Of a stretch of 28,665 nucleotides of DNA, positions 3,934 to 28,665 are shown piece by piece (positions within the stretch are counted from its first letter, which is position 1; each line of letters opens with the position of its first letter). This stretch comes from a virus (lineage: Duplodnaviria > Heunggongvirae > Uroviricota > Caudoviricetes). Location: the IMG/VR virus record IMGVR_UViG_2740892282_000008; one strand, given 5' to 3'. Under the pieces are notes generated by a model, which was not told the origin of the DNA, searched no databases, and worked only from the letters and a program-made list of their open reading frames with translations. Position numbers and translations under genes: made by a program.

Positions 3934-4696
3934 GCATGATCTCCACCATGCGCTGCGTCATCCGGACAAATCCATTTTCAATAGCCTGCTGATAATCAAT
4001 GATCACCAGCGCCGACTCCTCGAAAAAACACTGAATTTCAGAGGGGGCGTGAGCGTAATAGTCCGCAATTCTGCTGAAATTAAACACCGTGTGACGTTCT
4101 GCCGCACACAGGAGGAATTTCTCAATATCAGGCTCAAGGGACGCCGAACGTATCCGGCTGATCAGCTCCTGAGTTTTCGTATCGTCGTACAGTTCACTGA
4201 TATCCGGTTTACCGCCCGACGGCTCATAAACAGGCGTATCAATTTTCGTCGTATACGGCTCCTCCTCATTTCCTGTACCGGGCAAAACATCCGTCAACAG
4301 TTCATCAATTTCTGTCGGGATGAAGCCTGTCAGGGAGACATCAAAATCAGCATTGATTAGGTCCGACAGCTCCATCCGCAACAGATCTTCATCCCAGCCA
4401 GCATTCATCGGCAGGCGATTATCTGCCAGGCGGTACGCCTTTTTCTGCTCATCCGTCAGGCCAGACAGAACAATGACCGGAACAGAATCCATTTTGAGCA
4501 TTTCAGCCGCCATAACACGACCGTGACCCGCAATAATTTCGCCCTTTTCGTCAATCAGCACCGGATTAGTCCAGCCGAATTGCTTAATACTTTCTACCAG
4601 TTGTGCCACCTGCTCAGGGCTGTGCGTCCTGGCGTTGTGCGCATACGGTGACAATTCTTGTAATGGGCGATAGACTATCTTTAATTTCTCGCTCAT
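3905..4696 (-). CDS. ParB-like nuclease domain (ParB/Srx fold) protein, 263 aa
   Basis: N-terminal ParB-box-like motifs (VYRPLQELSPYAHNARTH ... IIAGHGRVMAA); 3' end overlaps the start of the next gene. Confidence 0.8.
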   Translation of the reverse strand: MSEKLKIVYRPLQELSPYAHNARTHSPEQVAQLVESIKQFGWTNPVLIDEKGEIIAGHGRVMAAEMLKMDSVPVIVLSGLTDEQKKAYRLADNRLPMNAGWDEDLLRMELSDLINADFDVSLTGFIPTEIDELLTDVLPGTGNEEEPYTTKIDTPVYEPSGGKPDISELYDDTKTQELISRIRSASLEPDIEKFLLCAAERHTVFNFSRIADYYAHAPSEIQCFFEESALVIIDYQQAIENGFVRMTQRMVEIMHGGEEEEYA

Positions 4697-4833
4697 ACAG
4701 CCTTGCTTTATGAATAAAACGCACCCCAGCAGCCAGTGCTACTGGGGACGGAGGGGTTGCTGGTAAAGTTAGGTATTGGATCAATGAGTGAGTCAACATA
4801 ATATTAAACTCACAATTATAAATCAGCCATATA

Positions 4834-6291: not shown

Positions 6292-6428
6292 ATCTAAATA
6301 TTCTTTCAATTATAACCACCTTGCTGCAATATTATGATTATACTGTATAAAATTTAACTCCTCTTAGATCTTACTTCACTGTTCCTTATGAAACAATCAT
6401 CAAAATGAATCATATTGTAGTTAAGATT

Positions 6429-11769: not shown

Positions 11770-11925
11770 TTACTCCTCAGGTTCGTAAGCTGTGAAGACA
11801 GCGACCTCCGTCTGACCGGTTCGGATTCGCACCTCGCAGAGGTCTTTCCTCGTTACCAGTGCCGTCACTATGACGGTTAAACAGATGACAATCAGTGCGA
11901 CTAACATCGCCTTTTGCTGCTTCAT
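11770..11925 (-). CDS. hok: Hok-family type I toxin (51 aa); in-frame mok-like extension to 11982
   Basis: MKQQKAMLVALIVICLTVIVTALVTRKDLCEVRIRTGQTEVAVFTAYEPEE is near-identical to my recollection of HokD; AAGGAG RBS; upstream in-frame ATG at 11982 gives a 70-aa mok-like ORF; 9-bp hairpin ggcgaggga/tccctcgcc just 3' of the stop. Confidence 0.85.
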   Translation of the reverse strand: MKQQKAMLVALIVICLTVIVTALVTRKDLCEVRIRTGQTEVAVFTAYEPEE

Positions 11926-12136
11926 AGCCTGCTTCTCCTTGCCTTCCGGCGCGTAAGAGGCTAACCTACATGTGCAAAGCATGAAATTGGCCTCAGATTA
12001 ATGTTAAGCGTCTTGCCGGACGCGTAATGTTATCTGGGGCTTTTCTCTATCTGCCTTTGGTGTTCATGCCTGAGGCAGATAGCCTCAAGCACCCGCAGCA
12101 ATTCTACTTAACTCCCGTCACCTCGCCAATATAAAA

Positions 12137-12226
12137 TCAATCAGAAAGGCGATCCATAAGAACAACAGCAAGACAATAAATTGCCATTACAGCCGCAATA
12201 GCTAGCGCACATTTGAGAACCAGCAC
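12137..12226 (-). CDS. Candidate small membrane peptide (29 aa, GTG start)
   Basis: GTG preceded by AGGAGG at 5 nt; encodes VLVLKCALAIAAVMAIYCLAVVLMDRLSD, a single hydrophobic helix. It overlaps the 74-aa six-frame ORF at 12141-12365 in a different frame. Confidence 0.25.
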   Translation of the reverse strand: MLVLKCALAIAAVMAIYCLAVVLMDRLSD

Positions 12227-12405
12227 GACAACCTCCTGTATTGGACGTACACCAGTTCTGATAAATATGAGGCTGTCTCATCATTGATTCAATATAACTA
12301 TTGGGTATAGTTTCTGTGATTTTGTTCTGTAGAAATGGAACACAACAACCAGTCACCACCAGCACTTCTTTAAATACGCCAAGTCCGACGCAAGCTAACC
12401 TTCTA

Positions 12406-12429
12406 GTCCGCTTTGAGCGAGGAGCGGAC
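12406..12429. repeat. Dyad element copy C: GTCCGCT-N10-AGCGGAC
   Basis: Perfect 7-bp inverted arms with 10-bp spacer, ~220 bp upstream of the MFS operon. Confidence 0.6.
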
Positions 12430-12645
12430 CAAACCCGGCCAACTGACTCTTAAAGGGGCCGCAGGAATTTTTCGTCTGAACTTTCGAAGCTCCTCTCCCT
12501 GAAGACAGAAAACTTCTGTGTGCTGTGGGAATATTGAATCTTTGCCTTAGATATAAATAATTTTATCCCGCCTGAAGTTTACATTATTTTATTTATCTGT
12601 TTTTCTAAATCAGACTGCACTCCTTACTTAAATCAGGAGCCAGTC

Positions 12646-13845
12646 ATGCCATTTGTTATTTATGTGTTTACTATCAGTGCCTTTGCGCTCGGACTCGCGG
12701 AATTTGTCCCCATTGGGCTGACAGACGTTATGGCTCAGGGGTTGTGTGTGGGTGTGGAGCAGACCGGGGCAGCGGTTACAACCTATGCACTGGGGGCAAC
12801 GTTCGCGGCACCCGTACTGTCTGCGCTGACAGCAAGCTGGAGCCGGAAAAATGTAATGCTTACAACTGCCGTTGTGTTTACTGCCGGTAGTCTGGCGGCC
12901 GCGTTTGCAGCCACATTACCTCAGCTCCTGTTAGCGCGGTTCATTGCTGGTCTGGGACACGGCCTGTTTCTGGCTGCGGCATCCAGTACCGCAGCTCGTC
13001 TTGCTGGACCGGGTAAAGCAGGCAGAGCGGTGGCTGTGGTATTTGGTGGCTTTACTCTGGCGATGGCAATCGGCGTACCGCTGAGTACATGGTTGGGGGG
13101 GGGGGTCTCATGGCGTCCAGTTCTCGGCGCTATTGCCGCTTTTGGCGCGTTCGGATTCCTTGGACTGTTGTTCGGTATGAAAGATCCCGTACGCAGCGTG
13201 CCCGGTGAACATAGTGACTCAGCAATGCAGAATATCGGCATGCTGTTTAACCGTAAGTTGCTGGCCGGCGCGCTGGTTACGGTGCTGGCGTATGCAGGCT
13301 CGTTTACGGATTACACCTTTATCGCACCTATTCTGACGCAGGTGACAGGGGTTACCGGAGCAACGGTGAGTCTGTTTATGCTGGTTTACGGTATTACAGC
13401 TGCGGTAGGTAATATTCTTGGTGGGAAACTTACCGACAGCATGGGGGTTAATCGTGCCAATATACTCATCATTAGCGGCATTGTTGTTGTCGTGCTTGGT
13501 ATGTGGCTGCTGTCATCCTCACCGGTGAGCATGGGCATTCTGGTTGCGCTGCTGGGTATGGTGACATTTGCCGCAGTGCCGGCACTGCAGGCCCGTCTGA
13601 TTGGTGTCGCTGAGCAACATGCTCCTCATGCGCATGGTGTTGCTGCCGGCCTGAATATTGCGGGCTTCAACTCAGGTATAGCGCTGGGATCAGTACTGGG
13701 CAGCATTACTATAAGCCACGCCGGTATCGTGTATACCGGTATCAGCGGTGCGATTGTTTCTCTGCTCGGCCTGCTGTTGCTGCTTGCACAAATCCGTCGC
13801 AGCCACAGTCGTAAATTTCAACAGGTTAAAATCGTAGGCCAGTAA
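12646..13845 (+). CDS. MFS transporter (399 aa)
   Basis: About 12 predicted transmembrane helices, Gly/Ala-rich major-facilitator-like sequence; AGGAG RBS; GC-rich relative to phage DNA; contains an 11-G tract. Confidence 0.85.
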   Translation: MPFVIYVFTISAFALGLAEFVPIGLTDVMAQGLCVGVEQTGAAVTTYALGATFAAPVLSALTASWSRKNVMLTTAVVFTAGSLAAAFAATLPQLLLARFIAGLGHGLFLAAASSTAARLAGPGKAGRAVAVVFGGFTLAMAIGVPLSTWLGGGVSWRPVLGAIAAFGAFGFLGLLFGMKDPVRSVPGEHSDSAMQNIGMLFNRKLLAGALVTVLAYAGSFTDYTFIAPILTQVTGVTGATVSLFMLVYGITAAVGNILGGKLTDSMGVNRANILIISGIVVVVLGMWLLSSSPVSMGILVALLGMVTFAAVPALQARLIGVAEQHAPHAHGVAAGLNIAGFNSGIALGSVLGSITISHAGIVYTGISGAIVSLLGLLLLLAQIRRSHSRKFQQVKIVGQ

Positions 13846-13856
13846 AGGGAGGTTAT

Positions 13857-14549
13857 ATGCTTACCCGTGAAAATATGCTTAATGGCACATTTGTCAGGGT
13901 GCATGAAGCGCTGCTCCCGGCGAATATGCTCTGGGACGCTGAAAAAATACGCGCATCAATGAACTCTACTCTGGAGGAGCGCCCGACGGGTGCTCCTGTC
14001 TGGATATTTGCCTACGGGTCATTGATGTGGAATCCCGTGCTGGCGATTGAAGAAATGCAACGGGCCCGTCTGAAAGGATGGCAGCGCAGTTTCTGCATTC
14101 GTTTGATATCCGGACGAGCGACTCCTGATGTCCCCGGCAGGATGTTATCGCTCGACGAAGGTGGAATTACCGAAGGTATTGCGTTCAGACTGCCGGAATC
14201 GACTCTTATTAATGAGCTGGAAATTGTCTGGACGCGCGAGATGATAACCGGTCTTTACCGTCCGGTCTGGGCAGACGTTTCGCTAGGAAACGGTGAGGAA
14301 ATTCAGGCGCTGGCTTTCGTATCAGACAGACTGCATCCGCATTATGAACAGGACAATCTTACAGCGACCGTAGCGTTGAGCATCGCATCTGCCCGTGGAG
14401 ACATTGGCACGAATGCAGATTATGTATGGAAACTGCAGGCCACTCTGGGTGCGTTGGGAATACGGGATGATTACGTGAGTGAACTGGCCCTTGCTCTGCA
14501 TGAGGCTCCCTGTAACGATAAACTTCATCAGCGAGGCGCTTCACTATGA
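13857..14549 (+). CDS. ChaC-family gamma-glutamylcyclotransferase-like protein (230 aa)
   Basis: VWIFAYGSLMWNP and GRMLSLDEGG motifs resemble E. coli ChaC; GGGAGG RBS. Confidence 0.75.
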   Translation: MLTRENMLNGTFVRVHEALLPANMLWDAEKIRASMNSTLEERPTGAPVWIFAYGSLMWNPVLAIEEMQRARLKGWQRSFCIRLISGRATPDVPGRMLSLDEGGITEGIAFRLPESTLINELEIVWTREMITGLYRPVWADVSLGNGEEIQALAFVSDRLHPHYEQDNLTATVALSIASARGDIGTNADYVWKLQATLGALGIRDDYVSELALALHEAPCNDKLHQRGASL

Positions 14550-15427
14550 GCCATCTGAGCCATCTGCGAACGTTTCTTGAGGCCTATCGCTCTGGCTCCT
14601 TTTCAAAGGCGGCAGAACTACTGGGCATCACTCAGCCCGCGGCGTCACAGCATATCCAGTCTCTTGAGACTCTGGTTGGTAAGCGTCTGTTTATCAGGCA
14701 GGCCAGAGGCGTGACGGCAACCGAAGCTGCGGATGAGCTTGCCCGCTCAGTTTCACCCTTCATTGATGGTCTGGAAGAAAAGCTGTCCTCTTTCCGGTCA
14801 GGCTCTGTACGCGGGGGAACAATTAATCTGGCAGGACCGCCAGATTTTATTCATTCCCGGCTTGGGACAGTAATGGCTCCACTAATGAAGGAGGGGTATC
14901 GCCTACGCTTTCATACCGGCAATAAGCAACGTATTTATTCCCTTTTGCATGACGGGAGCGCCGATCTCGCTGTTACCGCATCTATGCCTGATGACCGTCT
15001 GTACGGCTATGCACATCTACTGACTGAACGCATGCTCCTTGTTCATGCTCCCGCCATGTCAGAGATCATCGGATCAGAACCTGGTGCTGAAACGCTTGCC
15101 TCATTACCGCTGATTGCTTATGACGAAGAGTTGCCACTGATTAGAGCGCTCTGGGCCTCCATGTTTCAGAGAGCCCCTGAGATGCAGGCTACATTCACCA
15201 TTCCGGATTTACGTATTATCCGCGACTTGGTCTGTGACGGCCACGGGTGGACAGTGCTGCCGGATTATCACTGTGACAATGACCTGAAAAGTGGTCGCCT
15301 GATTTCAGTGACACCTGCAGACCTCGCTCCGACTAATCATCTTTATCTGGTCTGGAACAAAAGGACGGCTAATAACAGCCGAACCGCCTATGTTCGGGAT
15401 TACATTCTTAAAACGTTTCCGCGTTGA
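14546..15427 (+). CDS. LysR-type transcriptional regulator (293 aa)
   Basis: N-terminal LysR HTH (LRTFLEAYRSGSFSKAAELLGITQPAASQHIQSLE) and C-terminal substrate-binding-like domain; ATGA overlap with the ChaC-like gene. Confidence 0.85.
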   Translation: MSHLSHLRTFLEAYRSGSFSKAAELLGITQPAASQHIQSLETLVGKRLFIRQARGVTATEAADELARSVSPFIDGLEEKLSSFRSGSVRGGTINLAGPPDFIHSRLGTVMAPLMKEGYRLRFHTGNKQRIYSLLHDGSADLAVTASMPDDRLYGYAHLLTERMLLVHAPAMSEIIGSEPGAETLASLPLIAYDEELPLIRALWASMFQRAPEMQATFTIPDLRIIRDLVCDGHGWTVLPDYHCDNDLKSGRLISVTPADLAPTNHLYLVWNKRTANNSRTAYVRDYILKTFPR

Positions 15428-15471
15428 TGTTTGAAACGGATGATTGGCGATGCGTATCATAAGTTACGTAT

Positions 15472-15495
15472 GTCCGCTTCTGGCACAAAGCAGAC
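15472..15495. repeat. Dyad element copy A: GTCCGCT-tctggcacaa-AGCAGAC
   Basis: 7-bp arms (one mismatch) with 10-bp spacer, between convergent LysR and membrane-protein genes; 20 of 24 positions identical to copy B. Confidence 0.6.
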
Positions 15496-15557
15496 GCCCA
15501 CTCTCACGCGAATGCTTTGCCCTTGACTTGCCAACAACCGTATCGCTTGCTCCGCAA

Positions 15558-16835
15558 CTATGGTTTTTTATTAGAATCTTCGCCACTAAATAAATTATAA
15601 TAAATTGATTTTATTAGATATCTGTCAGAATCTATATGGTCAGCACGAGTAGCATGCTCTAATGTTTCAAATGCTAGGGTTTGTGCGGCTTCAGCAAAAA
15701 TTCCAGGCCAACCCTTACTCAGCATCGACAGTCCTTTAAGTACCCTTATCTGAATTTCCCTCATACTGGCACCATCGCGCGCAACAGGTGAGAAAAAGTC
15801 TTCAAGTAGATCGTTATTCTGAAGTGGTGCAACATGTACAGAAGGATATTTCACTTCTATTTCATCAGATTTATTCTGCGCGTAAGCGGAAAGTATACGT
15901 ACACCTCTGCCAATGACATCAATGGCGGTTCCAGGATCGTTCACTGCGGGGGAAAGGGCTCGGCAGGCTATTTCGGCCATGACGCTAAGACAAAATCGGG
16001 GGTCCTGAGCAAATGAACGTACATCCGAGACAATAATCGTCTCAAGTAAATCGGTGCTGATTGATGACTCCTGGCCCTGACTCAGGTACAAAACTGGCGT
16101 GGACGGATGTATGAAACTGCCCGGCTGCGCCACGAGGTATACATGACGGGGATCATTGGTCAGCAGCTTGCTGAGTTTCACCATATCAACATATTCAACA
16201 TAGCCAATCTTTTTCGGATAAACTGCAACCGTTCCTTTCGGCTGTTCATTGTTCTCAAGCCATGGATATCCGCCGAGACAGGGATTTCTTGCTCTCGCAA
16301 TAAATGTTTCGATGGCCGCCTGTTCTACTTTTGCCGTTGTCTCACCAACCCTCCCCAGAGAGGTCAAATGCTGTATCCAGCGAAGCAATGTGATGAGGAT
16401 TAAGGCAATGACAACCAGTGTTACAATGAATAAAATGACTCTCCCCCTTTCTCCATAAGCTCCCATATTGAGGGCAATAATCCCTACCAGACTGAAGAGA
16501 AAAGAACCGATGAAGGTGGCCAGTACATTTTGTGTGGTGACGTCTTCAACAACTAAACGAGTAGCTCTGGGAGTCACATTAGTAGTGGCTGAACCGTAGG
16601 CTGTGACCATGATGCTCAGCGAAAATGTGGTCACTGCCAGCATACTCGATGCCAGTATGTTCAGAATGTTATCGACTGCTTCCGCACCAACCTTCACGGA
16701 AACCGACTCAGGTATCATTGATTTAAAAAGAATTGATAAAAGGGCCGTTATTATTGCGACAATTGCGAATAACGTTGCCCTGAACCATAGTTTTTTAAAT
16801 GTCTGCTTCAGCATCCATTTCCAGCGTGAAATCAT
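15558..16835 (-). CDS. Membrane protein of unknown function (about 425 aa; resembles DUF2254-type predicted membrane proteins)
   Basis: Several N-terminal transmembrane helices and a large soluble C-terminal domain; start chosen at the second ATG (16835), which has a GAGGGA RBS; the maximal ORF extends to 16850. Family assignment is from memory and tentative. Confidence 0.55.
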   Translation of the reverse strand: MISRWKWMLKQTFKKLWFRATLFAIVAIITALLSILFKSMIPESVSVKVGAEAVDNILNILASSMLAVTTFSLSIMVTAYGSATTNVTPRATRLVVEDVTTQNVLATFIGSFLFSLVGIIALNMGAYGERGRVILFIVTLVVIALILITLLRWIQHLTSLGRVGETTAKVEQAAIETFIARARNPCLGGYPWLENNEQPKGTVAVYPKKIGYVEYVDMVKLSKLLTNDPRHVYLVAQPGSFIHPSTPVLYLSQGQESSISTDLLETIIVSDVRSFAQDPRFCLSVMAEIACRALSPAVNDPGTAIDVIGRGVRILSAYAQNKSDEIEVKYPSVHVAPLQNNDLLEDFFSPVARDGASMREIQIRVLKGLSMLSKGWPGIFAEAAQTLAFETLEHATRADHIDSDRYLIKSIYYNLFSGEDSNKKP

Positions 16836-16870
16836 TCTGCATTCCCTCATATTGCAGCCGGGATAAATAA

Positions 16871-16891
16871 ATGCCGCCTCTGTGGCGGCAT
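16871..16891 (-). terminator. Hairpin between the BCCT transporter and the membrane-protein gene; possible intrinsic terminator or attenuator
   Basis: 8-bp stem atgccgcc/ggcggcat with loop tctgt; on the minus strand it is followed by ttatttatcc. Confidence 0.4.
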
Positions 16892-16898
16892 GTTGCTG

Positions 16899-18902
16899 TT
16901 AACGAACCAGATGCAGGAAGTGCAGGTGTTTTTCGTACTGGTCCAGTATGTCATTAATCAGCTGTTCCTGATTCCAGCCCATTACATCATAATTTTGGCC
17001 GCCCTCTTTGAGATAGACTTCAGCGCGATAATATCGATGTTGTTCACTCTGCTGCTCATCATTATCCAGCGCAGCGAGCGCGAAGGTCGGTGAGTTATAC
17101 CCGCGAAGCCTCACTTCATATATATAATTCAGCTCGTTGCCCAAATCGACTTCAAGGCGAATACGATCCTCGGCGGCGTCACTGATGTGGCTTATCGTTC
17201 CCTGCTTGTTAAGTTCCTCCTGAACCAGCGTCATGGCGGGTTGGATAATGTCGTCCATAAAACGTTTCACAAGAGAGCGCTTCGGCAAATACGCGATATT
17301 GCGTAACCTTCTCTGCCAGGGAATTGGGTTACGTGCAGCCGTAGGAGCAATAGTCGCCATGCTAAGGCTTTCACGCTTGGTCAAATCCCGACGCAGGGCT
17401 TTTAACAGTCCGTATATGGATATTAATAAGATAACTGAGAAGGGCAATGCACTCGCTATCGTTACGGTTTGCAACGCACTCAGCCCCCCTGCGATCAGCA
17501 GGGCAATAGCAACAACGCCCATGAGCGATGCCCAGAAAATTCGCTGCCAGACGGGCGTGTTTGCCACCCCACCTGATGCCAGAGTATCCACAACCATTGC
17601 CCCCGAATCAGCAGACGTTACAAAGAAGACGATGACCATCGCCATTGCAATGAATGACAGCACGGAAGAGAACGGGAAATGCTCCAGGAAATTAAACAGG
17701 GCAAGCGCAACATCCTGCTGAACGGTATTGGCGAGGTCAGTGGCGCCCTGGTTCATGATGAGATAGATGGCGCTGTTTCCAAACACCGTCATCCACATGA
17801 GCGTAAAGCCGGCGGGAACAAACAACACGCCAGTCACGAACTCACGAATTGTCCTGCCGCGGGAAACGCGTGCAATGAACATACCTACAAACGGCGACCA
17901 TGAAAGCCACCATCCCCAGTATAATAATGTCCAGCCCCCCAGCCAGTTGCTCGACTTGGGTTCATACGCGTAAAGGTTGAACGTTTTACTCACCAGTTCC
18001 GACAGATAACCACCCGTATTTTCCACAAATGACTTCAGCAGAAGCACAGTGGGACCCAGGCACAAGACCAGCGCCAGGAGCAACACCGCCAGGCCCAGAT
18101 TAAGCTCAGACAGGATGCGTATTCCCTTGTCCAGGCCGGACACCACCGAAATCGTCGCTAACCCCGTGATGACCACGATCAAAATGACCTGTACCGTTTC
18201 ATTGATGGGCACGCCGAAAAGATGGTTCAAACCGGCATTCACCTGCAATACACCGTAACCCAGCGATGTTGCAACGCCAAAGACAGTGCCTATCACGGCG
18301 AAGATATCAACCGCGTGGCCTATAGGCCCGTAAATGCGATCGCCGATAATGGGATAGAGCGCAGAACGCAGCGTTAAAGGCAGACCGTGACGGTAACTGA
18401 AAAAGGCCAGAATCAGCGCCACGATGGCATAAATTGCCCATGCGTGCAGACCCCAGTGGAAGAACGTCAGGCGCATGGCTTCCTTCGCTGCCGCAACGGT
18501 CTCTGGAGTGCCGACAGGTGGCGAAAGATAATGCATCACAGGTTCGGCAACGCCAAAGAACATCAGGCCGATCCCCATCCCTGCCGAAAAAAGCATCGCG
18601 AACCAGGAGTGGTAGCTGAAATCAGGCTGCGCATGGTCTGGGCCCAGCTTTATATCACCGTAACGTGAGAGTCCAAGGAACGTGACGCTCAGTAAAATCA
18701 GGGCCACAGCAAGTATGTAGAACCAGCTGGCATTCGTGAAGATTTGTTGCTGAAGTAGTTTAAAATTTTTGTCGGCGACATCCGGGAATACGGCGGCAAA
18801 GGCGACAAGAAGGAAAATTAGCAAAGCAGATGTAAAGAATACCGCTTTGTTAATCTGGCTTGTAGACTTCTTTGGGGTTGTATCATTTTCACTCATAATC
18901 AT
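16899..18902 (-). CDS. BCCT-family transporter, BetT-like (667 aa)
   Basis: Collinear similarity to my recollection of E. coli BetT, including LSELN, WTLLYWGWWLSWSPFVGMFIARVSRGRTIREF and the cytoplasmic C-terminal extension ending DILDQYEKHLHFLHL. Confidence 0.9.
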   Translation of the reverse strand: MIMSENDTTPKKSTSQINKAVFFTSALLIFLLVAFAAVFPDVADKNFKLLQQQIFTNASWFYILAVALILLSVTFLGLSRYGDIKLGPDHAQPDFSYHSWFAMLFSAGMGIGLMFFGVAEPVMHYLSPPVGTPETVAAAKEAMRLTFFHWGLHAWAIYAIVALILAFFSYRHGLPLTLRSALYPIIGDRIYGPIGHAVDIFAVIGTVFGVATSLGYGVLQVNAGLNHLFGVPINETVQVILIVVITGLATISVVSGLDKGIRILSELNLGLAVLLLALVLCLGPTVLLLKSFVENTGGYLSELVSKTFNLYAYEPKSSNWLGGWTLLYWGWWLSWSPFVGMFIARVSRGRTIREFVTGVLFVPAGFTLMWMTVFGNSAIYLIMNQGATDLANTVQQDVALALFNFLEHFPFSSVLSFIAMAMVIVFFVTSADSGAMVVDTLASGGVANTPVWQRIFWASLMGVVAIALLIAGGLSALQTVTIASALPFSVILLISIYGLLKALRRDLTKRESLSMATIAPTAARNPIPWQRRLRNIAYLPKRSLVKRFMDDIIQPAMTLVQEELNKQGTISHISDAAEDRIRLEVDLGNELNYIYEVRLRGYNSPTFALAALDNDEQQSEQHRYYRAEVYLKEGGQNYDVMGWNQEQLINDILDQYEKHLHFLHLVR

Positions 18903-19144
18903 TTATTCCATTAATTAAATCCGCACTGGATAGAAGGTACTACCTCTCACAGAGTAGCAAAGTTCAACTGGCTATGCGGGGTTAATCGGAATGCATGGTG
19001 GAATGAGTGCCGATACAAATCATCCTATATTCTAAGGAGTTTTAAGTTACTCAGCCTGCCAATTACTGGGGCATTTAATTTGTATGATCTGTATCAAAGC
19101 TGGGATATAAGTTAAGTGAAGTATATTAGGCACGAATTACCAGC

Positions 19145-19699: not shown

Positions 19700-20776
19700 T
19701 TACCCCCTGAAGCCCGGCGGAATTTCGTTATCCGGTTCAGAAATATGATTCACACAACGCTGGTTGTTCGTGCCGCTTACCGGGAGCAACCAGGGGTTCT
19801 CAAAATTCCGGTCCGGTCCAAAAAACGTCGTCGCTCGCTGAACAAATTCCGTTCCCGTTTTCCCGGTAGCCGCCAAGTATCTTGCGTAACGCCTCACGCC
19901 ATCCAGCATGGCCTCTGGTGGCACCCCCTCGCGTAATCTGGCCTTCCAGGCACTGAAAGCGGATTTCTTCGGGTTTGCCCCAGCACGCAACGGGTACTCC
20001 CGCCAGACCTGTTCGAACACATCCGGATAATCCACTCGTCCCACAGACTGCCCGGTGTTTTCCGGGACTACCCGATCGGCTTCCCGCTGAATGGCGGAAT
20101 CGGCTTCAGGCTGCTGCAGTTGGTGTGATTGCTCCGCCCTTGCGGTCATCACCTGCTGCACAGCGCCCGAATCGGCTTTCAGCGCATACGCTGAATCGGC
20201 TTCCGGTGTCGTGCCTGCTGGCTGACCAAGATTGACGGTCTGAACATCCCCTGCCTGGTTCGTGGCGTTTTTTACGCCATGGACCATAGTGTTTTGATCT
20301 TCTTGATCTGTATCTTTATCTGTATCTTTATCTGTCGTGACTCGTCGTGACATGTGCGTGACATTTCGTGACGCGCCGTGACAATCGCCATTTTGTTCCC
20401 GCTTTCTTTCCCTCTCTCGCTGCGCCCTCTTGCGCTCTGCAGGAGATTTTGCGGTTTGCGAAATATTGCCGTTGTCCTCTTTAAGCACCTGGCGTTTTTC
20501 CCATCCAGTGATTAAATCACCATCAAGTACCCGCCCCTGCATCGTCTGCAAAATTGAATCAATTACCTCTTCTGTCACGTCGAGCGCACTTGCCAAATCT
20601 TCTGTCGTGACATCAATGTGACCTCGCGTGACATTTCGTGACGCGCTCACCAGGAGGTGGATATACACTGCCATCACTGTTGCAATTGGCTGTCCTGACA
20701 CCCTGGCAATTGTTCGCCACTTAGGGTCATTTGGCATGTCATGCCATAATCTGAGCCAGGCGTTAGCCATACTCAC
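19700..20776 (-). CDS. Putative replication initiation protein (YdaU/DUF1376-like C-terminal domain) with internal iteron-like repeats
   Basis: 358-aa ORF in the replication position; C-terminal domain resembles YdaU-family proteins from memory; central low-complexity segment (DKDTDKDTD) and a duplicated ASRNVT motif coincide with the DNA repeats. Confidence 0.6.
   Translation of the reverse strand: MSMANAWLRLWHDMPNDPKWRTIARVSGQPIATVMAVYIHLLVSASRNVTRGHIDVTTEDLASALDVTEEVIDSILQTMQGRVLDGDLITGWEKRQVLKEDNGNISQTAKSPAERKRAQRERERKREQNGDCHGASRNVTHMSRRVTTDKDTDKDTDQEDQNTMVHGVKNATNQAGDVQTVNLGQPAGTTPEADSAYALKADSGAVQQVMTARAEQSHQLQQPEADSAIQREADRVVPENTGQSVGRVDYPDVFEQVWREYPLRAGANPKKSAFSAWKARLREGVPPEAMLDGVRRYARYLAATGKTGTEFVQRATTFFGPDRNFENPWLLPVSGTNNQRCVNHISEPDNEIPPGFRG
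20306..20382. repeat. Iteron-like array 1: two tandem 12-mers (atctgtatcttt) followed by five CGTGAC hexamers phased at 10-11 bp
   Basis: CGTGAC at 20336, 20346, 20357, 20367 and 20377. Confidence 0.7.
20574..20642. repeat. Iteron-like array 2: one inverted GTCACG plus four (C/T)GTGAC hexamers phased at 10-11 bp
   Basis: GTCACG at 20574; CGTGAC at 20606, 20627 and 20637; TGTGAC at 20617; a 21-bp exact repeat gcgtgacatttcgtgacgcgc is shared with array 1 (20356-20376 and 20626-20646). Confidence 0.7.
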
Positions 20777-20841
20777 CTCTTTTGATACCGAATCTTTTTA
20801 CTCACAAATTGCCGGAAGTGATCCGGTATGAATATTGCGAG

Positions 20842-21267
20842 TCAATGCACAGCCACAATATTTCCTGCAGGGCCACCACGATTCATCTGGTTGAAACCAG
20901 CGATCGCCACTGCGACAAAATCATCAGCGTCTCTCACCAGTCGTTCCCGCGTCTCCACTAGTTCCCGAAAATAGGCTGAGCTATGGCTGCGCATTCGGGC
21001 CACCAGCAGAGGTGGCATTGCTTTTTCGATAGCTGGTAACAACGCCTGAATTTTTTCAACTGCATCAGGGGTGTCTTTCTCTACCCAGCGGAAAATTTTC
21101 TGGGTATTGCGAGCCAGGGCTTCCGGATGGCTGTCGTCATACAGTTCTGGGAACGTCATACCCAGTTCAAAATAAGCCCTGGTTATTTCAGCTGCCGGAA
21201 CTTTTTCACCGTCCGGATGCGCCCAGGCATTCATCGCCATGCGGATGTGTTCATGCTTGATTTTCAT
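20842..21267 (-). CDS. YdaT-like early protein (141 aa)
   Basis: ATG with AGGAG RBS; follows the cro-like gene with a 17-nt overlap, as ydaS-ydaT do in Rac; name assigned by size and position. Confidence 0.55.
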   Translation of the reverse strand: MKIKHEHIRMAMNAWAHPDGEKVPAAEITRAYFELGMTFPELYDDSHPEALARNTQKIFRWVEKDTPDAVEKIQALLPAIEKAMPPLLVARMRSHSSAYFRELVETRERLVRDADDFVAVAIAGFNQMNRGGPAGNIVAVH

Positions 21268-21532
21268 GAATCAAGCTCCTAGAAAGTGGTTGTGTTAACA
21301 TTTTGGTATCTTCCAGCTCGGGCCAAATATTCATCCAATCAAAAGGCCTTAGTTGCTGACGTGTAACTTCACCATTACTGGCTCGCTCAATAAGGACACA
21401 TAACGATGCCCCTAACACTTGACCTTTACTCAATGCCTTTCTTAGATAACCGATGCTGGTACCACACTCGCATGCAAACATACGCTGTTCATCTGACGAA
21501 AGAGAATTGAGAAATATTCTTAATTCTTCCAT
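21251..21532 (-). CDS. Cro-like HTH regulator (YdaS-like, 93 aa)
   Basis: Divergent from racR across the operator region; HTH-like segment (GTSIGYLRKALSKGQ) and IERASNGEVTRQQLRPFDW motif typical of Cro/YdaS-like proteins; strong AAGGAG RBS. Confidence 0.7.
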   Translation of the reverse strand: MEELRIFLNSLSSDEQRMFACECGTSIGYLRKALSKGQVLGASLCVLIERASNGEVTRQQLRPFDWMNIWPELEDTKMLTQPLSRSLIHENQA

Positions 21533-21561
21533 AGCTACTCCTTAGTAAACACAGCAAAGAA

Positions 21562-21637
21562 TACCCATAGGTAAACAAAAGTCAATACCCACAGGTTGTT
21601 TACCTTGCAGTAATCGCATCTATTATTTACCTATGGA
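21562..21637. promoter_or_regulatory. Immunity operator/promoter region (OR-like) with three related dyad sites
   Basis: tacccataggta (21562-21573), tacccacaggtt (21586-21597) and tacctatgga (21628-21637, overlapping the racR ATG), in the 100-bp gap between divergent racR and cro-like genes. Confidence 0.6.
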
Positions 21638-22052
21638 CAAATATGAATTTAGACGACAGCAACTCATCAAAATTCGTGATGAGAAATGCGATGGTAAAGC
21701 GGTTAACGTGGCCAGAAAGATCGGGCGCGAGCCTTCTTATGTATCAAGAATGTTGTACCCAGAGGGGAAAAAGGGAAAAAAACGGATCGCTGATGATATG
21801 GTGGAGATTATCGAAGAGTCCTTTGGGTTACCCCGGGGATGGATGGATGGTATCGTTTCATCATCAACGAACACAGCCTCCAGTTATGAAACAAGGGTTC
21901 TAACGCCACGACAACGTATTTTTTTAGATCTCTTAGACGAACTGCCAGAAAGTGAAGCGGATAACTTATTAAAAACTCTTGAAGAGAAAAAACAGTATTA
22001 CAATATGATCTACGAAGAAATCCGTAAAAAGAAAGCACAAAACGCATCATAG
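21633..22052 (+). CDS. racR: Prophage repressor (RacR-like)
   Basis: 139-aa ORF with N-terminal HTH (NVARKIGREPSYVSRML), divergent from the cro-like gene and flanked on both sides by operator-like palindromes. The symbol is assigned by position and my recollection of Rac. Confidence 0.65.
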   Translation: MDKYEFRRQQLIKIRDEKCDGKAVNVARKIGREPSYVSRMLYPEGKKGKKRIADDMVEIIEESFGLPRGWMDGIVSSSTNTASSYETRVLTPRQRIFLDLLDELPESEADNLLKTLEEKKQYYNMIYEEIRKKKAQNAS

Positions 22053-22094
22053 CTCACCAAACAACTAGTCACCAGTTAAGACACCGCAAAAAGT

Positions 22095-22132
22095 TACCCA
22101 TGGGTATTTACTTTTTAAATACCTATGGGTAT
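22095..22132. promoter_or_regulatory. Second operator cluster (OL-like) downstream of racR
   Basis: Perfect 12-bp palindrome tacccatgggta (22095-22106) and near-copy tacctatgggta (22121-22132), same family as the sites at 21562-21637. Confidence 0.55.
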
Positions 22133-22306
22133 CCTTCTTTTCATACCAACCCACCCCGCCCCACAGAATGCAGGGCAATACTTCGAGTTACCAGGCAGTG
22201 GTCAGGGGTTAAGTAGCCAGCCCGAGGCGTAAGAACATGACGGCGGGATTCAAATTTTGCAGTGCAGCAGTTAGTTCCGCCACCCGGCGTTAAGGGGAGA
22301 GATAAG

Positions 22307-22441
22307 ATGGTGCATTACGAAGTAGTTCAGTATTTGATGGATTGTTGCGGTATCACTTACAACCAGGCTGTGCAGGCTTTACGCAGCAACGACTGGGATC
22401 TCTGGCAGGCAGAAGTCGCTATACGTAGCAACAAGATGTGA
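22307..22441 (+). CDS. ydaG: Small Rac early-left protein YdaG (44 aa)
   Basis: ATG with AAGGGGAG RBS; MVHYEVVQYLMDCCGITYNQAVQALRSNDWDLWQAEVAIRSNKM; below the ORF-track size cutoff. Confidence 0.6.
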   Translation: MVHYEVVQYLMDCCGITYNQAVQALRSNDWDLWQAEVAIRSNKM

Positions 22442-22451
22442 GATTCGCAAA

Positions 22452-22607
22452 ATGCAAAAAATCGACCTCGGCAACAACGAATCCCTGGTGTGCGGCGTGT
22501 TCCCCAACCAGGATGGAACGTTCACTGCCATGACGTATACCAAAAGCAAAACATTTAAAACCGAAACTGGTGCGCGCCGATGGTTGGAGAAGCACACAGT
22601 AAGCTAA
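22452..22607 (+). CDS. ydaF: Small Rac early-left protein YdaF (51 aa)
   Basis: ATG ORF MQKIDLGNNESLVCGVFPNQDGTFTAMTYTKSKTFKTETGARRWLEKHTVS; its 3' end overlaps the sieB 3' end convergently. Confidence 0.55.
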   Translation: MQKIDLGNNESLVCGVFPNQDGTFTAMTYTKSKTFKTETGARRWLEKHTVS

Positions 22608-23092
22608 CGATTAAAACGTCTACTCCTGCTGTTCCAGAATAACTTCATAAAATGGGAGTATTTTTCGGTGACGAGATAATAAGAACAGTTTGCGCTATCA
22701 CTCTGATGTTGAATGATGCCCTTCCGTTCTAATTTTTTCATAACCGGGTTACGGCAAGGAGAAGTGATAATAAGATTTCCTGTTTTAAGGAAATCTTTAA
22801 ATACAGCGATTTCTTTCTCAGATAAACGAAGCAATACTCGTTGCTCTGGTAGTAATGAATAATGCTTTTGAATATGTGCTCGCAATCTTGAGAAGGAAAT
22901 GGCGACCACGAAAGAAAAGGCAAAAACGATAATCTGAAAGAGCCAAGGTATTTCAGTATAAGCATTGAATGCGACAGTAAACTCTTTCGGTATCAGCCAG
23001 AGAGTGAGACCAAAAATGATAATCGTATACATAAGTCTTTCGAGTGGCTCGTTAGCAAAAAGTTTCAACAATGGAGTAAATACATCCAACAT
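22604..23092 (-). CDS. sieB: Superinfection exclusion protein B (SieB, 162 aa)
   Basis: Internal ATG at 23092 gives the 162-aa membrane protein MLDVFTPLLKLFANEPLERLMYTIIIFGLTLWLIP...; the maximal ORF runs to 23404. Confidence 0.75.
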   Translation of the reverse strand: MLDVFTPLLKLFANEPLERLMYTIIIFGLTLWLIPKEFTVAFNAYTEIPWLFQIIVFAFSFVVAISFSRLRAHIQKHYSLLPEQRVLLRLSEKEIAVFKDFLKTGNLIITSPCRNPVMKKLERKGIIQHQSDSANCSYYLVTEKYSHFMKLFWNSRSRRFNR

Positions 23093-23532
23093 ATCAATAA
23101 CTCTCAACTGTAAGGGTATTGAAATGTTAACACAAGCTCTCGCTGTAGGGGTATAGCCGAGACCACCGAAGCCCGGAGGTGGTGAAATAAAACCGGGCAC
23201 AACACGAAGGCGCATTTCCGATATCCATAAAGAGTCGGTCTTGTCTGTTAAATTTAAATGGTGGAGTGCGCCTCCGGTTGTAAATAACGACATTGCTGTG
23301 TGTAGTCCTGGCGGCATCAGTTTTTTTCTTGAAGTTCGGCTGATGTCCGCCCTTTTTAAAGTGAATTTTGTGATGCGGTGAATGCGGCTAAGCGCACGTG
23401 GCACAGTTAAAAGTCATGTTAGTCCTTATTGGTTTGGGTGGGAAAGCCGACTGTAATTGTTAACTGGTTGCAGTCACCTGGAGGCACCAGGCACCGCATC
23501 AACAAAGTTCATTTGTAAAAATGGAGATAATT

Positions 23533-23754
23533 ATGATTGCACATCACTTCGGAACTGATGAAATACCACGTCAGTGTGTGACTCCTGGCGATTATGTTCT
23601 TCATGAAGGCCGGACATATATTGCCTCGGCAAACAATATTAAAAAGCGAAAACTATATATTCGTAACCTGACCACAAAAACATGCATTACTGACCGCATG
23701 ATTAAAGTCTTCCTCGGTCGTGATGGTTTACCTGTAAAGGCGGAGTCATGGTGA
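23533..23754 (+). CDS. kilR: FtsZ inhibitor Kil (KilR, 73 aa)
   Basis: [46 protein letters not shown]... matches my recollection of Rac KilR; GGAG RBS. Confidence 0.8.
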
Positions 23755-23924
23755 TGACTAAGAAAATAAAATGTGCTTACCACCTTTGCAAAAAAGACGT
23801 TGAAGAAAGCAAAGCTATTGAAAGAATGCTTCACTTCATGCACGGGATTTTATCAAAAGACGAACCGAGAAAATATTGCAGTGAAGCTTGTGCCGAAAAA
23901 GACCAGATGGCACATGAACTTTAA
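23754..23924 (+). CDS. ydaE: Small Cys-rich protein YdaE (56 aa)
   Basis: ATG overlapping the kilR stop (ATGA); [56 protein letters not shown]; below the ORF-track cutoff. Confidence 0.7.
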   Translation: MTKKIKCAYHLCKKDVEESKAIERMLHFMHGILSKDEPRKYCSEACAEKDQMAHEL

Positions 23925-23998
23925 TTAATTGACTATTCGAAACTGAATTTATGCCAGAAATGGCAGGTATTCGCTCAACCTTAATTAAGGAGAAAAAC

Positions 23999-24274
23999 AT
24001 GATTACCAATTATGAAGCCACTGTTGTAACTACCGATGACATTGTTCACGAGGTGAATCTGGAAGGAAAGCGCATTGGCTACGTAATTAAAACAGAAAAT
24101 AAAGAAACCCCATTCACTGTGGTTGATATCGATGGTCCATCAGGCAACGTAAAAACACTTGATGAAGGTGTCAAAAAAATGTGCCTGGTGCATATCGGAA
24201 AGAATCTGCCCGCAGAAAAAAAAGCCGAATTTCTGGCAACTCTAATTGCAATGAAATTAAAAGGTGAAATCTGA
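23999..24274 (+). CDS. racC: RacC (91 aa)
   Basis: ATG with AGGAG RBS; MITNYEATVVTTDDIVHEVNLEGKRIGYVIKTENKETPF... matches my recollection of Rac RacC. Confidence 0.8.
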   Translation: MITNYEATVVTTDDIVHEVNLEGKRIGYVIKTENKETPFTVVDIDGPSGNVKTLDEGVKKMCLVHIGKNLPAEKKAEFLATLIAMKLKGEI

Positions 24275-24375
24275 AAGAAATAGCCTGCGTATGGCGCAGG
24301 CTATGAACAGTGTGTATCCGGCAAGATCATTCACTGAACAAAACGAATTTTAATCTGAGTTGAGGTTAAAAAACA

Positions 24376-26346
24376 ATGAGCACAAAACCACTCTTCCTGT
24401 TACGGAAAGCGAAAAAATCATCCGGTGAACCTGACGTCGTCCTGTGGGCAAGCAACGATTTTGAATCGACCTGTGCCACTCTGGACTACCTGATCGTTAA
24501 GTCAGGTAAAAAACTGAGCAGCTATTTTAAAGCTGTTGCCACGAATTTTCCTGTCGTTAATGACCTGCCCGCTGAAGGTGAGATCGATTTTACCTGGAGT
24601 GAACGCTATCAACTCAGCAAAGACTCCATGACATGGGAACTAAAACCGGGAGCAGCACCAGACAACGCTCACTATCAAGGCAATACCAACGTCAACGGCG
24701 AAGACATGACTGAGATTGAGGAGAATATGCTACTCCCAATTTCTGGCCAGGAACTGCCCATTCGTTGGCTTGCTCAACACGGCAGCGAAAAACCGGTAAC
24801 GCACGTTTCACGCGACGGACTCCAGGCATTACACATTGCTCGGGCTGAAGAACTACCGGCTGTTACTGCCCTGGCTGTTTCCCACAAAACCAGCCTGCTC
24901 GACCCGCTGGAAATTCGCGAACTCCACAAACTGGTTCGTGACACTGACAAAGTTTTCCCTAATCCTGGTAATTCAAACCTGGGACTGATAACTGCTTTTT
25001 TCGAAGCATACCTGAACGCTGACTACACCGATCGAGGACTGCTGACAAAAGAGTGGATGAAGGGTAATCGTGTTTCACACATCACTCGCACGGCTTCCGG
25101 TGCTAATGCTGGCGGCGGAAACCTCACCGATCGCGGCGAAGGTTTCGTACACGATCTGACGTCACTGGCGCGCGACGTAGCCACTGGCGTACTGGCCCGT
25201 TCAATGGATCTGGACATCTATAACCTTCATCCGGCACACGCTAAACGCATTGAGGAAATTATCGCTGAAAATAAACCGCCCTTTTCTGTTTTCCGCGACA
25301 AATTCATCACCATGCCTGGCGGGCTGGATTATTCCCGCGCCATCGTGGTTGCGTCCGTAAAAGAAGCACCAATTGGGATCGAGGTCATCCCCGCGCACGT
25401 CACTGAATATCTGAACAAAGTACTGACTGAAACCGATCATGCCAACCCTGATCCGGAAATCGTGGATATTGCCTGCGGTCGCTCCTCTGCCCCGATGCCG
25501 CAGCGAGTAACAGAAGAAGGAAAACAGGATGATGAAGAAAAACCGCAACCATCTGGAACAACGGCAGTTGAACAGGGAGAGGCTGAAACAATGGAACCGG
25601 ACGCAACTGAACATCATCAGGACACGCAGCCGCTGGATGCTCAGTCACAGGTAAATTCTGTTGATGCGAAATATCAGGAACTGCGGGCAGAACTCCATGA
25701 AGCCCGGAAAAACATTCCATCAAAAAATCCTGTCGATGCCGATAAATTGCTTGCTGCATCACGTGGTGAATTTGTTGACGGAATTAGCGACCCGAACGAT
25801 CCGAAATGGGTAAAGGGGATCCAGACTCGCGATTGTGTGTACCAGAACCAGCCAGAAACGGAAAAAACCAGCCCAGATATGAATCAACCTGAGCCAGTAG
25901 TGCAACAGGAACCGGAAATAGCCTGCAATGCCTGCGGCCAGACTGGCGGGGATAACTGCCCTGACTGTGGTGCGGTGATGGGCGACGCAACATACCAGGA
26001 AACATTCGCTGAAGAGAGTCAGGTTGAAGCTAAGGAAAATGATCCGGAGGAAATGGAAGGCGCTGAACATCCGCACAATGAGAATGCTGGCAGCGATCCG
26101 CATCGCGATTGCAGTGATGAAACTGGCGAAGTCGCAGATCCCGTAATCGTAGAAGACATAGAGCCAGGTATTTATTACGGAATTTCGAATGAGAATTACC
26201 ACGCGGGTCCCGGTATCAGTAAGTCTCAGCTCGATGACATTGCTGATACTCCGGCACTATATTTGTGGCGTAAAAATGCCCCCGTGGACACCACAAAGAC
26301 AAAAACGCTCGATTTAGCTTCGAATTTGGCCTTGATGAAAAGTTAA
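24376..26346 (+). pseudogene. recE: recE, C-terminally truncated (N-terminal ~640 codons retained; exonuclease domain deleted)
   Basis: Sequence from [29 protein letters not shown] to ...[17 protein letters not shown] matches my recollection of Rac RecE; after LDL the frame runs out-of-frame into recT sequence and stops after 11 codons. Confidence 0.85.
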
Positions 26347-26681
26347 TACACCGCCCGGGAGAAAACGAAGATGCCCCGGTTACCCACGTCTATGCTGTCG
26401 CAAGACTGAAAGACGGAGGTACTCAGTTTGAAGTTATGACGCGCAAACAGATTGAGCTGGTGCGCAGCCTGAGTAAAGCTGGTAATAACGGGCCGTGGGT
26501 AACTCACTGGGAAGAAATGGCAAAGAAAACGGCTATTCGTCGCCTGTTCAAATATTTGCCCGTATCAATTGAGATCCAGCGTGCAGTATCAATGGATGAA
26601 AAGGAACCACTGACAATCGATCCTGCAGATTCCTCTGTATTAACCGGGGAATACAGTGTAATCGATAATTCAGAGGAATAA
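26313..26681 (+). pseudogene. recT: recT 3' remnant (about the last 120 codons, no native start)
   Basis: Reading frame encodes [72 protein letters not shown]...VIDNSEE, matching my recollection of the RecT C-terminus; joined directly to the truncated recE. Confidence 0.8.
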
Positions 26682-26737
26682 TTCAGCCTGGCGGTGTAAT
26701 GCACCGCCAACTTGAAATATTTTTTATGAGAAAAATT

Positions 26738-26932
26738 ATGAGATATGACAATGTTAAACCATGTCCATTTTGTGGTTGTCCATCAGTAACGGTGAAAGCC
26801 ATTTCAGGATATTACCGAGCGAAGTGTAACGGATGTGAATCCCGAACCGGTTATGGTGGAAGTGAAAAAGAAGCACTCGAAAGATGGAATAAACGAACCA
26901 CTGGAAATAATAATGGAGGTGTTCATGTATAA
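26738..26932 (+). CDS. ralR: Restriction alleviation protein / type I toxin RalR (Lar, 64 aa)
   Basis: MRYDNVKPCPFCGCPSVTVKAISGYYRAKCNGCESRTGYGGSEKEALERWNKRTTGNNNGGVHV matches my recollection of Rac RalR. Confidence 0.8.
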   Translation: MRYDNVKPCPFCGCPSVTVKAISGYYRAKCNGCESRTGYGGSEKEALERWNKRTTGNNNGGVHV

Positions 26933-27134
26933 AATTACCGCCACTATTGAAAAGGAAGGTGGCACTCCTACTAACTGGACAAGATATTCAAAATCTAAAC
27001 TAACGAAATCAGAATGCGAAAAAATGCTCTCAGGTAAAAAAGAAGCAGGCGTTTCCAGAGAGCAGAAAGTAAAACTGATAAATTTTAATTGCGAGAAACT
27101 TCAGTCCTCGAGAATTGCATTGTATTCAAATTAA
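26925..27134 (+). CDS. ydaC: YdaC (69 aa)
   Basis: ATG with GGAGGTG RBS, overlapping the ralR stop by 8 nt; MYKITATIEKEGGTPTNWTRYSKSKLTKSECEKMLSGKK... Confidence 0.75.
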   Translation: MYKITATIEKEGGTPTNWTRYSKSKLTKSECEKMLSGKKEAGVSREQKVKLINFNCEKLQSSRIALYSN

Positions 27135-27212
27135 AACTTCATAGCTGATTATTAATAATCAACATCGGGCGTCAATTTCAGTCTAACATTGGCGCCTGCC
27201 AGAGGTGATGCG

Positions 27213-27428
27213 ATGGCACAAGTAATCTTTAATGAAGAGTGGATGGTTGAATACGGCCTGATGCTTCGCACTGGTCTGGGGGCCAGACAAATTGAAGCAT
27301 ACCGCCAGAACTGTTGGGTGGAGGGCTTCCACTTCAAACGAGTATCTCCTTTAGGTAAGCCAGACAGCAAACGAGGGATTATCTGGTACAACTATCCAAA
27401 GATAAATCAGTTTATCAAAGACTCATGA
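27213..27428 (+). CDS. xisR: Excisionase-like protein (YdaQ/XisR-like, 71 aa)
   Basis: ATG with GAGGTGA RBS, immediately upstream of the integrase (2-nt gap); small basic protein in the canonical xis position. Confidence 0.65.
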
Positions 27429-27429
27429 T

Positions 27430-28665
27430 ATGTCTAAATTACCAACAGGTGTCGAGATTAGAGGTAGATACATTCGCATCTGGTTCATGTTTCGAGGAAA
27501 ACGATGTCGGGAAACATTAAAAGGCTGGGAGATTACAAACAGTAATATTAAAAAGGCCGGAAATTTAAGAGCGCTGATAGTTCATGAAATAAACTCCGGT
27601 GAATTTGAGTATTTAAGACGTTTTCCCCAGTCCAGCACTGGGGCAAAAATGGTGACAACGAGAGTCATAAAAACGTTCGGAGAGCTTTGTGATATCTGGA
27701 CAAAAATTAAAGAGACAGAGTTAACAACAAACACAATGAAGAAAACGAAATCACAATTAAAAACACTCAGAATAATAATTTGTGAAAGTACCCCGATATC
27801 ACATATTCGTTATAGCGATATCTTAAACTACCGGAATGAACTGCTGCATGGAGAAACGCTTTACCTGGATAATCCAAGATCCAACAAAAAAGGAAGAACC
27901 GTGCGCACAGTTGATAACTATATCGCCCTGCTCTGTTCGCTGTTGCGTTTTGCGTATCAGTCGGGATTTATATCAACCAAACCATTTGAAGGAGTAAAAA
28001 AATTACAGCGAAACAGAATAAAGCCTGATCCGTTATCTAAAACAGAATTCAATGCATTAATGGAAAGTGAAAAAGGACAGAGCCAGAACTTGTGGAAATT
28101 TGCCGTTTACTCAGGACTTCGTCACGGGGAACTGGCAGCTCTGGCGTGGGAGGATGTGGATCTCGAAAAGGGAATAGTGAATGTCAGAAGAAACCTGACG
28201 ATACTTGATATGTTCGGTCCCCCAAAAACAAATGCCGGGATCCGAACAGTAACACTACTGCAGCCTGCTCTTGAAGCACTGAAGGAGCAATACAAACTGA
28301 CCGGACATCATCGCAAAAGCGAAATCACCTTTTATCATCGGGAGTACGGCAGAACCGAAAAGCAAAAACTGCATTTTGTTTTCATGCCCAGGGTGTGTAA
28401 CGGAAAACAAAAACCTTATTACTCGGTAAGCAGTTTGGGGGCAAGGTGGAATGCAGCAGTAAAACGTGCTGGTATTCGCCGCCGTAATCCGTACCATACG
28501 CGGCATACTTTTGCCTGCTGGCTGTTGACGGCAGGAGCGAACCCGGCATTTATAGCCAGCCAAATGGGGCATGAAACTGCGCAGATGGTGTATGAAATTT
28601 ACGGTATGTGGATTGATGACATGAACGACGAACAGATAGCCATGTTGAATGCGCGGTTATCGTAG
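27430..28665 (+). CDS. intR: Tyrosine site-specific integrase (411 aa)
   Basis: C-terminal catalytic region with the conserved R...HxxR...Y pattern (YHTRHTFACWLLTAGANPAFIASQMGHE...MVYEIYG); length and position match Rac IntR; stop is the last codon of the window. Confidence 0.9.
   Translation: MSKLPTGVEIRGRYIRIWFMFRGKRCRETLKGWEITNSNIKKAGNLRALIVHEINSGEFEYLRRFPQSSTGAKMVTTRVIKTFGELCDIWTKIKETELTTNTMKKTKSQLKTLRIIICESTPISHIRYSDILNYRNELLHGETLYLDNPRSNKKGRTVRTVDNYIALLCSLLRFAYQSGFISTKPFEGVKKLQRNRIKPDPLSKTEFNALMESEKGQSQNLWKFAVYSGLRHGELAALAWEDVDLEKGIVNVRRNLTILDMFGPPKTNAGIRTVTLLQPALEALKEQYKLTGHHRKSEITFYHREYGRTEKQKLHFVFMPRVCNGKQKPYYSVSSLGARWNAAVKRAGIRRRNPYHTRHTFACWLLTAGANPAFIASQMGHETAQMVYEIYGMWIDDMNDEQIAMLNARLS

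Follow-up and report, generated by a model that had tools for sequence, protein, structure and literature searches.

A probable microhomology-mediated deletion spanning recE and recT in a cryptic Rac-type prophage of a natural Escherichia coli isolate

The window analysed here, namely the whole 28,665-nt stretch of DNA, represents the first 28,665 nt of contig CXYJ01000012.1 (126,917 nt) from the assembly of a natural Escherichia coli isolate (GCA_001268685.1), to which window positions 20376-28665 are 100% identical at matching coordinates. The recE-recT locus and the features which lie directly downstream of it are as follows:

24376-26346, plus strand: truncated recE fusion open reading frame (ORF) of 656 aa, comprising RecE codons 1-647 (24376-26316), nine out-of-frame codons and a TAA stop codon (26344-26346)
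26313-26317, no strand: deletion junction, where TTTAG occurs at both breakpoints in the intact references and as a single copy in the window
26318-26681, plus strand: recT 3' remnant, comprising the last base of codon 149, codons 150-269 (26319-26678) and a TAA stop codon (26679-26681)
26436-26681, plus strand: 81-aa ORF starting at RecT Met189, annotated as a RecT fragment by gene callers
26738-26932, plus strand: ralR toxin gene, intact and directly 3' of the recT remnant; its product is 100% identical to K-12 RalR and matches Pfam Lar_restr_allev
26931-27109, minus strand: RalA antitoxin sRNA, intact and of full length (Rfam RF02694, 225 bits against a gathering score of 170, model positions 1-179 of 179)

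The genes surrounding this locus are intact. On the basis of tblastn comparison, ydaF, sieB, ydaE, racC, ralR, rcbA (ydaC), xisR and intR are 100% identical to their K-12 counterparts over their full length, while kilR differs by one substitution and is likewise intact. The site of integration is the canonical Rac site, with ttcA and dbpA following intR on the source contig, and the location of the intR/xisR module beside ttcA, both genes being 100% identical to K-12, places the element among the Rac-type prophages. The same genes occur in the same order (racC-recE-recT-ralR-rcbA-xisR-intR-ttcA) as in the RecE/RecT module of K-12 Rac, and nucleotide identity exceeds 99.7% to either side of the junction. 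In contrast to K-12 Rac, the window lacks 1,097 bp (recE codon 648 to recT codon 149), encodes neither protein in complete form and has no racR homologue. No tblastn match to RacR was observed in the window, and the RacR/YdaS immunity region of K-12 Rac is absent. Homology to K-12 begins at position 22142, while the immunity region upstream matches the Rac-type prophage of strain NCTC9080 (NZ_LR134295.1) instead. The latter prophage, which was the closest intact reference found, shares 99.9-99.97% identity with most of the window, including the same immunity region and cargo genes, but incorporates intact recE and recT genes, a full head and tail gene set and a 3.3-kb relBE-flxA-ISEsa1 segment, all of which are absent in the window. 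The prophage can be classed as a mosaic relative of Rac, rather than as K-12 Rac itself. Within the immunity region (20376-22141), a 139-aa ORF (21633-22052) without a Pfam match occupies the place of RacR.

The junction between recE and recT was delineated by comparison with the prophages of K-12 MG1655 (L001; recE 2971-5571, recT 5564-6373) and NCTC9080 (L004). Two collinear BLASTN blocks were obtained, with window positions 22142-26317 corresponding to L001 737-4912 (99.76% identity) and 26310-28665 corresponding to L001 6001-8357 (99.87% identity); the apparent overlap of 8 nt between these blocks includes a 1-nt gap. Base-by-base reading against both references revealed that exactly 1,097 bp, equivalent to L001 4913-6009 and L004 45267-46363, are missing from the window. 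The sequence breaks after position 26317 and resumes at 26318, as read directly from the bases, with the latter position corresponding to L001 6010 and L004 46364. At the left breakpoint the intact references read ACGCTCGATTTAG followed by GAACTG and at the right breakpoint GGTGACGAGTTTAG followed by CTTCGA, while in the window ACGCTCGATTTAG is followed immediately by CTTCGA. The pentanucleotide TTTAG is thus found twice in K-12 (L001 4908-4912 and 6005-6009) and once in the window, and forms part of a longer imperfect match (CGA-TTTAG versus CGAGTTTAG; 8/9 with an indel). Under a simple random-junction model, the chance of encountering at least 5 bp of homology at a junction is approximately 0.005 (~0.5%). 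Inspection of the junction bases for inserts revealed no foreign bases, insertion sequence (IS) remnant or target-site duplication. The short direct repeat in the reference, the single copy retained and the lack of an insert are the features of a microhomology-mediated deletion. As 1,097 leaves a remainder of two when divided by three, the recE frame enters the recT DNA out of frame and is terminated after nine codons.

The 656-aa product retains a substantial part of RecE. Its first 647 residues are identical to those of NCTC9080 RecE and differ from K-12 RecE at two positions, after which the out-of-frame codons derived from recT DNA add the residues ASNLALMKS. The only Pfam domain in this product is Exonuc_VIII (PF06630; residues 2-178, E = 3e-98), with no match to the C-terminal PDDEXK domain (PF12684) in a protein which departs from RecE after residue 647. 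In intact K-12 RecE, PF12684 is located at residues 615-850, and the match to PDB 3H4R extends over residues 605-866. The nuclease domain has been assigned to residues 564-866, with a PD-DXK active site (PMC11611040). The deleted part of RecE (residues 648-866) includes most of the domain solved as 3H4R, of which approximately 40-85 residues at the N-terminal edge survive. The three catalytic PD-DXK residues of K-12 RecE, D748 (in the motif RPD), D759 and K761 (DVK), are all encoded within the deleted segment.

In the case of recT, the ATG start codon and residues 1-149 (the N-terminal 55%) are deleted. The remnant encodes 120 aa, RecT 150-269, which are 100% identical to K-12 RecT and lie in a different frame from recE. 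While the RecT domain (PF03837) is found at residues 53-244 of the intact protein, the match in the window is limited to profile positions 107-187 of 198, with more than half of the domain gone. An identical product to that of the 81-aa ORF is called on 146 contigs, on which other types of disruption affect the upstream part of recT. Since the GGAGG motif is situated 17 nt upstream of this ORF, which represents poor spacing, the ORF probably does not constitute a functional gene.

These data allow for refinement of a preliminary description of the locus, in which recE was reported to run into DNA coding for the RecT C-terminus in another frame. Both the BLASTN blocks and the base reading confirm this fusion, although the break, which had been placed after approximately 640 codons, follows codon 647. 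The figure of about 120 C-terminal RecT residues was exact, while the evidence fits a clean deletion, as had been proposed, with its size of 1,097 bp having been slightly overestimated at 1.2-1.4 kb. The alignment against an intact Rac recET region which had been suggested to map the junction and any microhomology placed the junction at 26317/26318, with TTTAG as the shared sequence. Loss of the RecE exonuclease domain and of the N-terminal half of RecT had also been put forward, and this holds for the active site, most of the nuclease domain and RecT residues 1-149, but not for the domain as a whole. With the PD-DXK residues and half of the RecT domain missing, the predicted inactivation of the RecET module is likewise upheld.

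The exact 1,097-bp allele is rare. A survey for the same deletion, which had been recommended, revealed no carriers among complete genomes; megablast comparison of window positions 25900-26900 against 5,426 complete E. coli genomes yielded thousands of partial matches, none of which spanned the junction. The exact junction 32-mer (CAAAAACGCTCGATTTAGCTTCGAATTTGGCC) had no matches in genome, viral and metagenome contig collections, while an exact-protein look-up among approximately 15 billion proteins placed the 656-aa product on two draft contigs only (126,917 and 144,955 nt), the former being the source contig of the window. Among the complete genomes, matches to the recT-3'/ralR segment were obtained in 1,913 and matches to the deleted 1,097 bp in 1,742, while a 2.1-kb stretch spanning the deleted segment is present over at least 80% of its length in 1,729. 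At most approximately 9% of the complete-genome carriers of the recT-3'/ralR segment are thus without a match to the deleted segment, a rough upper estimate given that these sets need not be nested.

Deletions of the same class, with other breakpoints, are present in other natural E. coli strains. At least six independent deletions which span recE and recT could be distinguished, ranging in size from 1.4 to 3.0 kb and with junction overlaps of 2-13 bp. Five alleles were identified by aligning ten fetched contexts of the 81-aa fragment to K-12, while that of strain LR-03 (L002, NZ_AP027474.1) was found separately. In three of the ten contexts (L005, L006 and L009), recT is merely split by small changes (point or frameshift). 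The breakpoints, given on L001, and the junctions of the other alleles, given on the respective loci, are as follows:

Window allele (CXYJ01000012.1): 4912 / 6010, overlap of 5 nt, 1,097 bp deleted
LR-03 allele (complete genome, L002): 4550 / 5913, overlap of 3 nt, ~1,365 bp deleted, junction at L002 5054-5056
L007 and L012 allele (81-aa look-up): 3386 / 6101, overlap of 3 nt, ~2.7 kb deleted, junction at 3474-3476
L008 allele (81-aa look-up): 3119 / 6073, overlap of 2 nt, ~3.0 kb deleted, junction at 3446-3447
L010 and L013 allele (81-aa look-up): 3113 / 6103, overlap of 2 nt, ~3.0 kb deleted, junction at 3476-3477
L011 allele (81-aa look-up): 3401 / 6068, gapped overlap of 13 nt, ~2.7 kb deleted, junction at 3442-3454
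L014 allele (81-aa look-up): 4572 / 6064, overlap of 2 nt, ~1.5 kb deleted, junction at 3437-3438

As in the window, these deletions begin in recE, end in recT, involve short homology and leave rcbA, xisR and intR, and apparently ralR, intact. However, none shares the junction of the window, and those other than the LR-03 allele involve the loss of 1.5-3.0 kb. The LR-03 deletion, which extends from recE codon 527 to recT codon 118, represents the same class of event with different breakpoints, and both genes are called as partial (partial RecE and partial RecT) by PGAP. Across the other strains recE is cut at codons ~48, 50, 139, 144, 527 and 534, and no particular RecE fragment is thus conserved. 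The right breakpoints of the other alleles appear to cluster at recT codons ~167-181, and a deletion hotspot or constraint in recT was considered as an explanation. This was rejected as an artefact of ascertainment, because it was the 81-aa ORF starting at Met189 by which these loci had been found. The nearest in-frame start codon upstream is Met124, and a deletion would therefore have to end between codons 124 and 189 to yield the 81-aa ORF call; the LR-03 deletion, found by another route, breaks at codon 118. As a separate observation, no ralR gene is called between the recT remnant and rcbA in L008, L009, L011, L013 and L014 (at ~3746-3990), yet the DNA there aligns with K-12.

Decay of this prophage is not restricted to recE and recT. 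In comparison with NCTC9080, window positions 2406-2414 join L004 8741 to 18038, leaving a gap of 9.3 kb with few shared bases at the join, in which tail-tube, head, portal (DUF4055) and terminase genes are missing. The prophage is morphogenesis-defective. A second gap of 3.3 kb occurs at window positions 11924-11939, where L004 27571 is joined to 30872 at a 16-bp shared sequence (ATAGCCTGCTTCTCCT). The segment concerned includes the hokD-side relBE, ydfV, flxA, ydfW and a partial ISEsa1 in NCTC9080, and the difference reflects either a deletion in the window or an insertion or recombination in NCTC9080. The racC, kilR, ralR, ydaC, xis and int genes had been described at the outset as intact, and the loss as specific to the recombination genes. 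The former is substantiated by the tblastn comparison, while the latter applies locally but not to the prophage as a whole, as the 9.3-kb head and tail segment and the 3.3-kb segment are also missing relative to NCTC9080. Deletional decay of 'grounded' prophages, Rac included, has been described in general reviews (PMC6379469), and the recET deletion can be viewed as one of several decay steps in a defective prophage, not uniquely aimed at the recombination genes.

Several further features were observed in the left part of the window. Relative to K-12 Rac, DNA from the tfaR/stfR end (96% identity) abuts a tape-measure remnant and ydaY at positions 485-2187 (L015 6315 to 11957). The join of the stfR-end and tape-measure DNA lies near 1173-1177, with most of stfR, lom and the tape-measure gene missing. 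The contig starts inside a GGDEF diguanylate-cyclase gene (1-393, plus strand; PF00990 profile positions 37-161, E = 3.7e-36), which is cut by the contig end. A cargo block at ~12000-19000 (L004 31594-37844) encodes an MFS transporter, a gamma-glutamylcyclotransferase, a LysR regulator, a DUF2254 protein and a BCCT (BetT-like) transporter, as named in the NCTC9080 annotation of the corresponding region, while trkG is located further to the left.

Taken together, a recent, microhomology-mediated deletion of 1,097 bp which inactivated both RecE and RecT in a cryptic Rac-type prophage is very probably the explanation for this locus. A spontaneous illegitimate deletion, of the RecA-independent type, would have occurred at the shared TTTAG in the prophage beside ttcA, joining recE codon 647/648 to recT codon 149/150. 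This would have left a 656-aa N-terminal RecE fragment devoid of the PD-DXK nuclease active site, and a recT gene stripped of its start codon and of the sequence coding for its N-terminal 149 residues. The structure of the junction points to slippage or short-homology joining, independent of RecA, as the putative mechanism, and the deletion was probably a single event. The identity of residues 1-647 to NCTC9080 RecE and of residues 150-269 to K-12 RecT suggests that the event is recent, without further decay. Since the recET genes are normally silent in the lysogen, as established for K-12 only, their loss would be selectively neutral. The deletion would constitute ordinary pseudogenisation of well-known genes and is mechanistically nothing new.

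An origin in several steps, whereby an IS element such as IS1 was inserted and later lost together with adjacent DNA, or whereby two smaller deletions took place, has some precedent in that IS1 occurs inside or beside recT in several complete genomes, with an IS4-like element there in ET12567. Such an origin is nevertheless improbable, as the junction bears none of the traces described above that an IS might have left, and one joining at TTTAG accounts for it exactly. The recurrence of independent recE-recT-spanning deletions, with at least seven alleles when that of the window is included, could be read as selection in natural E. coli rather than neutral decay, acting against functional RecET or in favour of the RecE N-terminal fragment and/or the recT-3'/ralR-ralA segment, with the 656-aa fragment potentially acting alone. 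The recurrence of the deletions is the one observation which speaks for selection, and this reading is considered to be improbable.

The possibility was also weighed that recE and recT in this prophage represent a naturally short, functional variant, or that the N-terminal 647 residues of RecE have a role of their own. The frame of 656 codons remains open, with a sequence identical to that of the parent, and the N-terminal region improves linear-linear recombination in full-length RecE (PMC11611040). However, an open frame is to be expected in any event for a very recent deletion, and the ORF finishes in nine out-of-frame codons. Short variants with intact domains, which had been named beforehand as the outcome that would overturn the deletion, were not observed; the alignment and Pfam results show both domains to be incomplete, with RecE lacking its nuclease active site and RecT half of its domain. 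Given furthermore the restriction of the allele to two contigs among ~15 billion proteins and the very different codons at which recE is cut in other strains, a functional short variant is very improbable.

The junction could alternatively have been created during assembly, with recE and recT collapsed or mis-joined and the recET genes of the strain truly intact. The source is a short-read draft assembly, the window begins at contig position 1, and the junction is found in none of the complete genomes. Against this, the breakpoints share 5 bp only (8/9 with an indel), which is far below any assembler k-mer and provides no repeat to collapse, and the junction is situated at a depth of 26 kb in a contig of 127 kb. 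A second contig, which differs in length, encodes the same fusion protein, although the two contigs might stem from one isolate or read set assembled twice, and equivalent deletions occur in finished genomes, for example that of LR-03, where they are annotated as pseudogenes. An assembly artefact is thus extremely improbable. An engineered deletion was rejected, as the junction shows the TTTAG microhomology only, without a scar, a cassette or a designed boundary.

The microhomology-mediated deletion proposed here would differ in its consequences from the rearrangements known from classical K-12 genetics. In sbcA mutants, for example sbcA8, a deletion removes upstream DNA and leads to expression of a functional C-terminal RecE together with RecT. 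The sbcA-type changes likewise delete or rearrange DNA of the Rac recE region, but their effect is the opposite, as it is the functional nuclease domain at the C-terminus of RecE, together with half of RecT, that is lost in the window. Judging from the missing catalytic residues and domain content, both RecE and RecT would be non-functional, and the strain would be unable to activate the RecET (sbcA-type) recombination pathway. The lack of a usable endogenous RecET pathway would be of relevance only for sbcA-type activation or in vivo cloning. The locus nevertheless provides a cleanly mapped case of putative microhomology-mediated gene loss in a cryptic prophage, and the repeated occurrence of recE-recT deletions with differing breakpoints means that the E. 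coli population could be mined for those Rac genes which are kept by selection.
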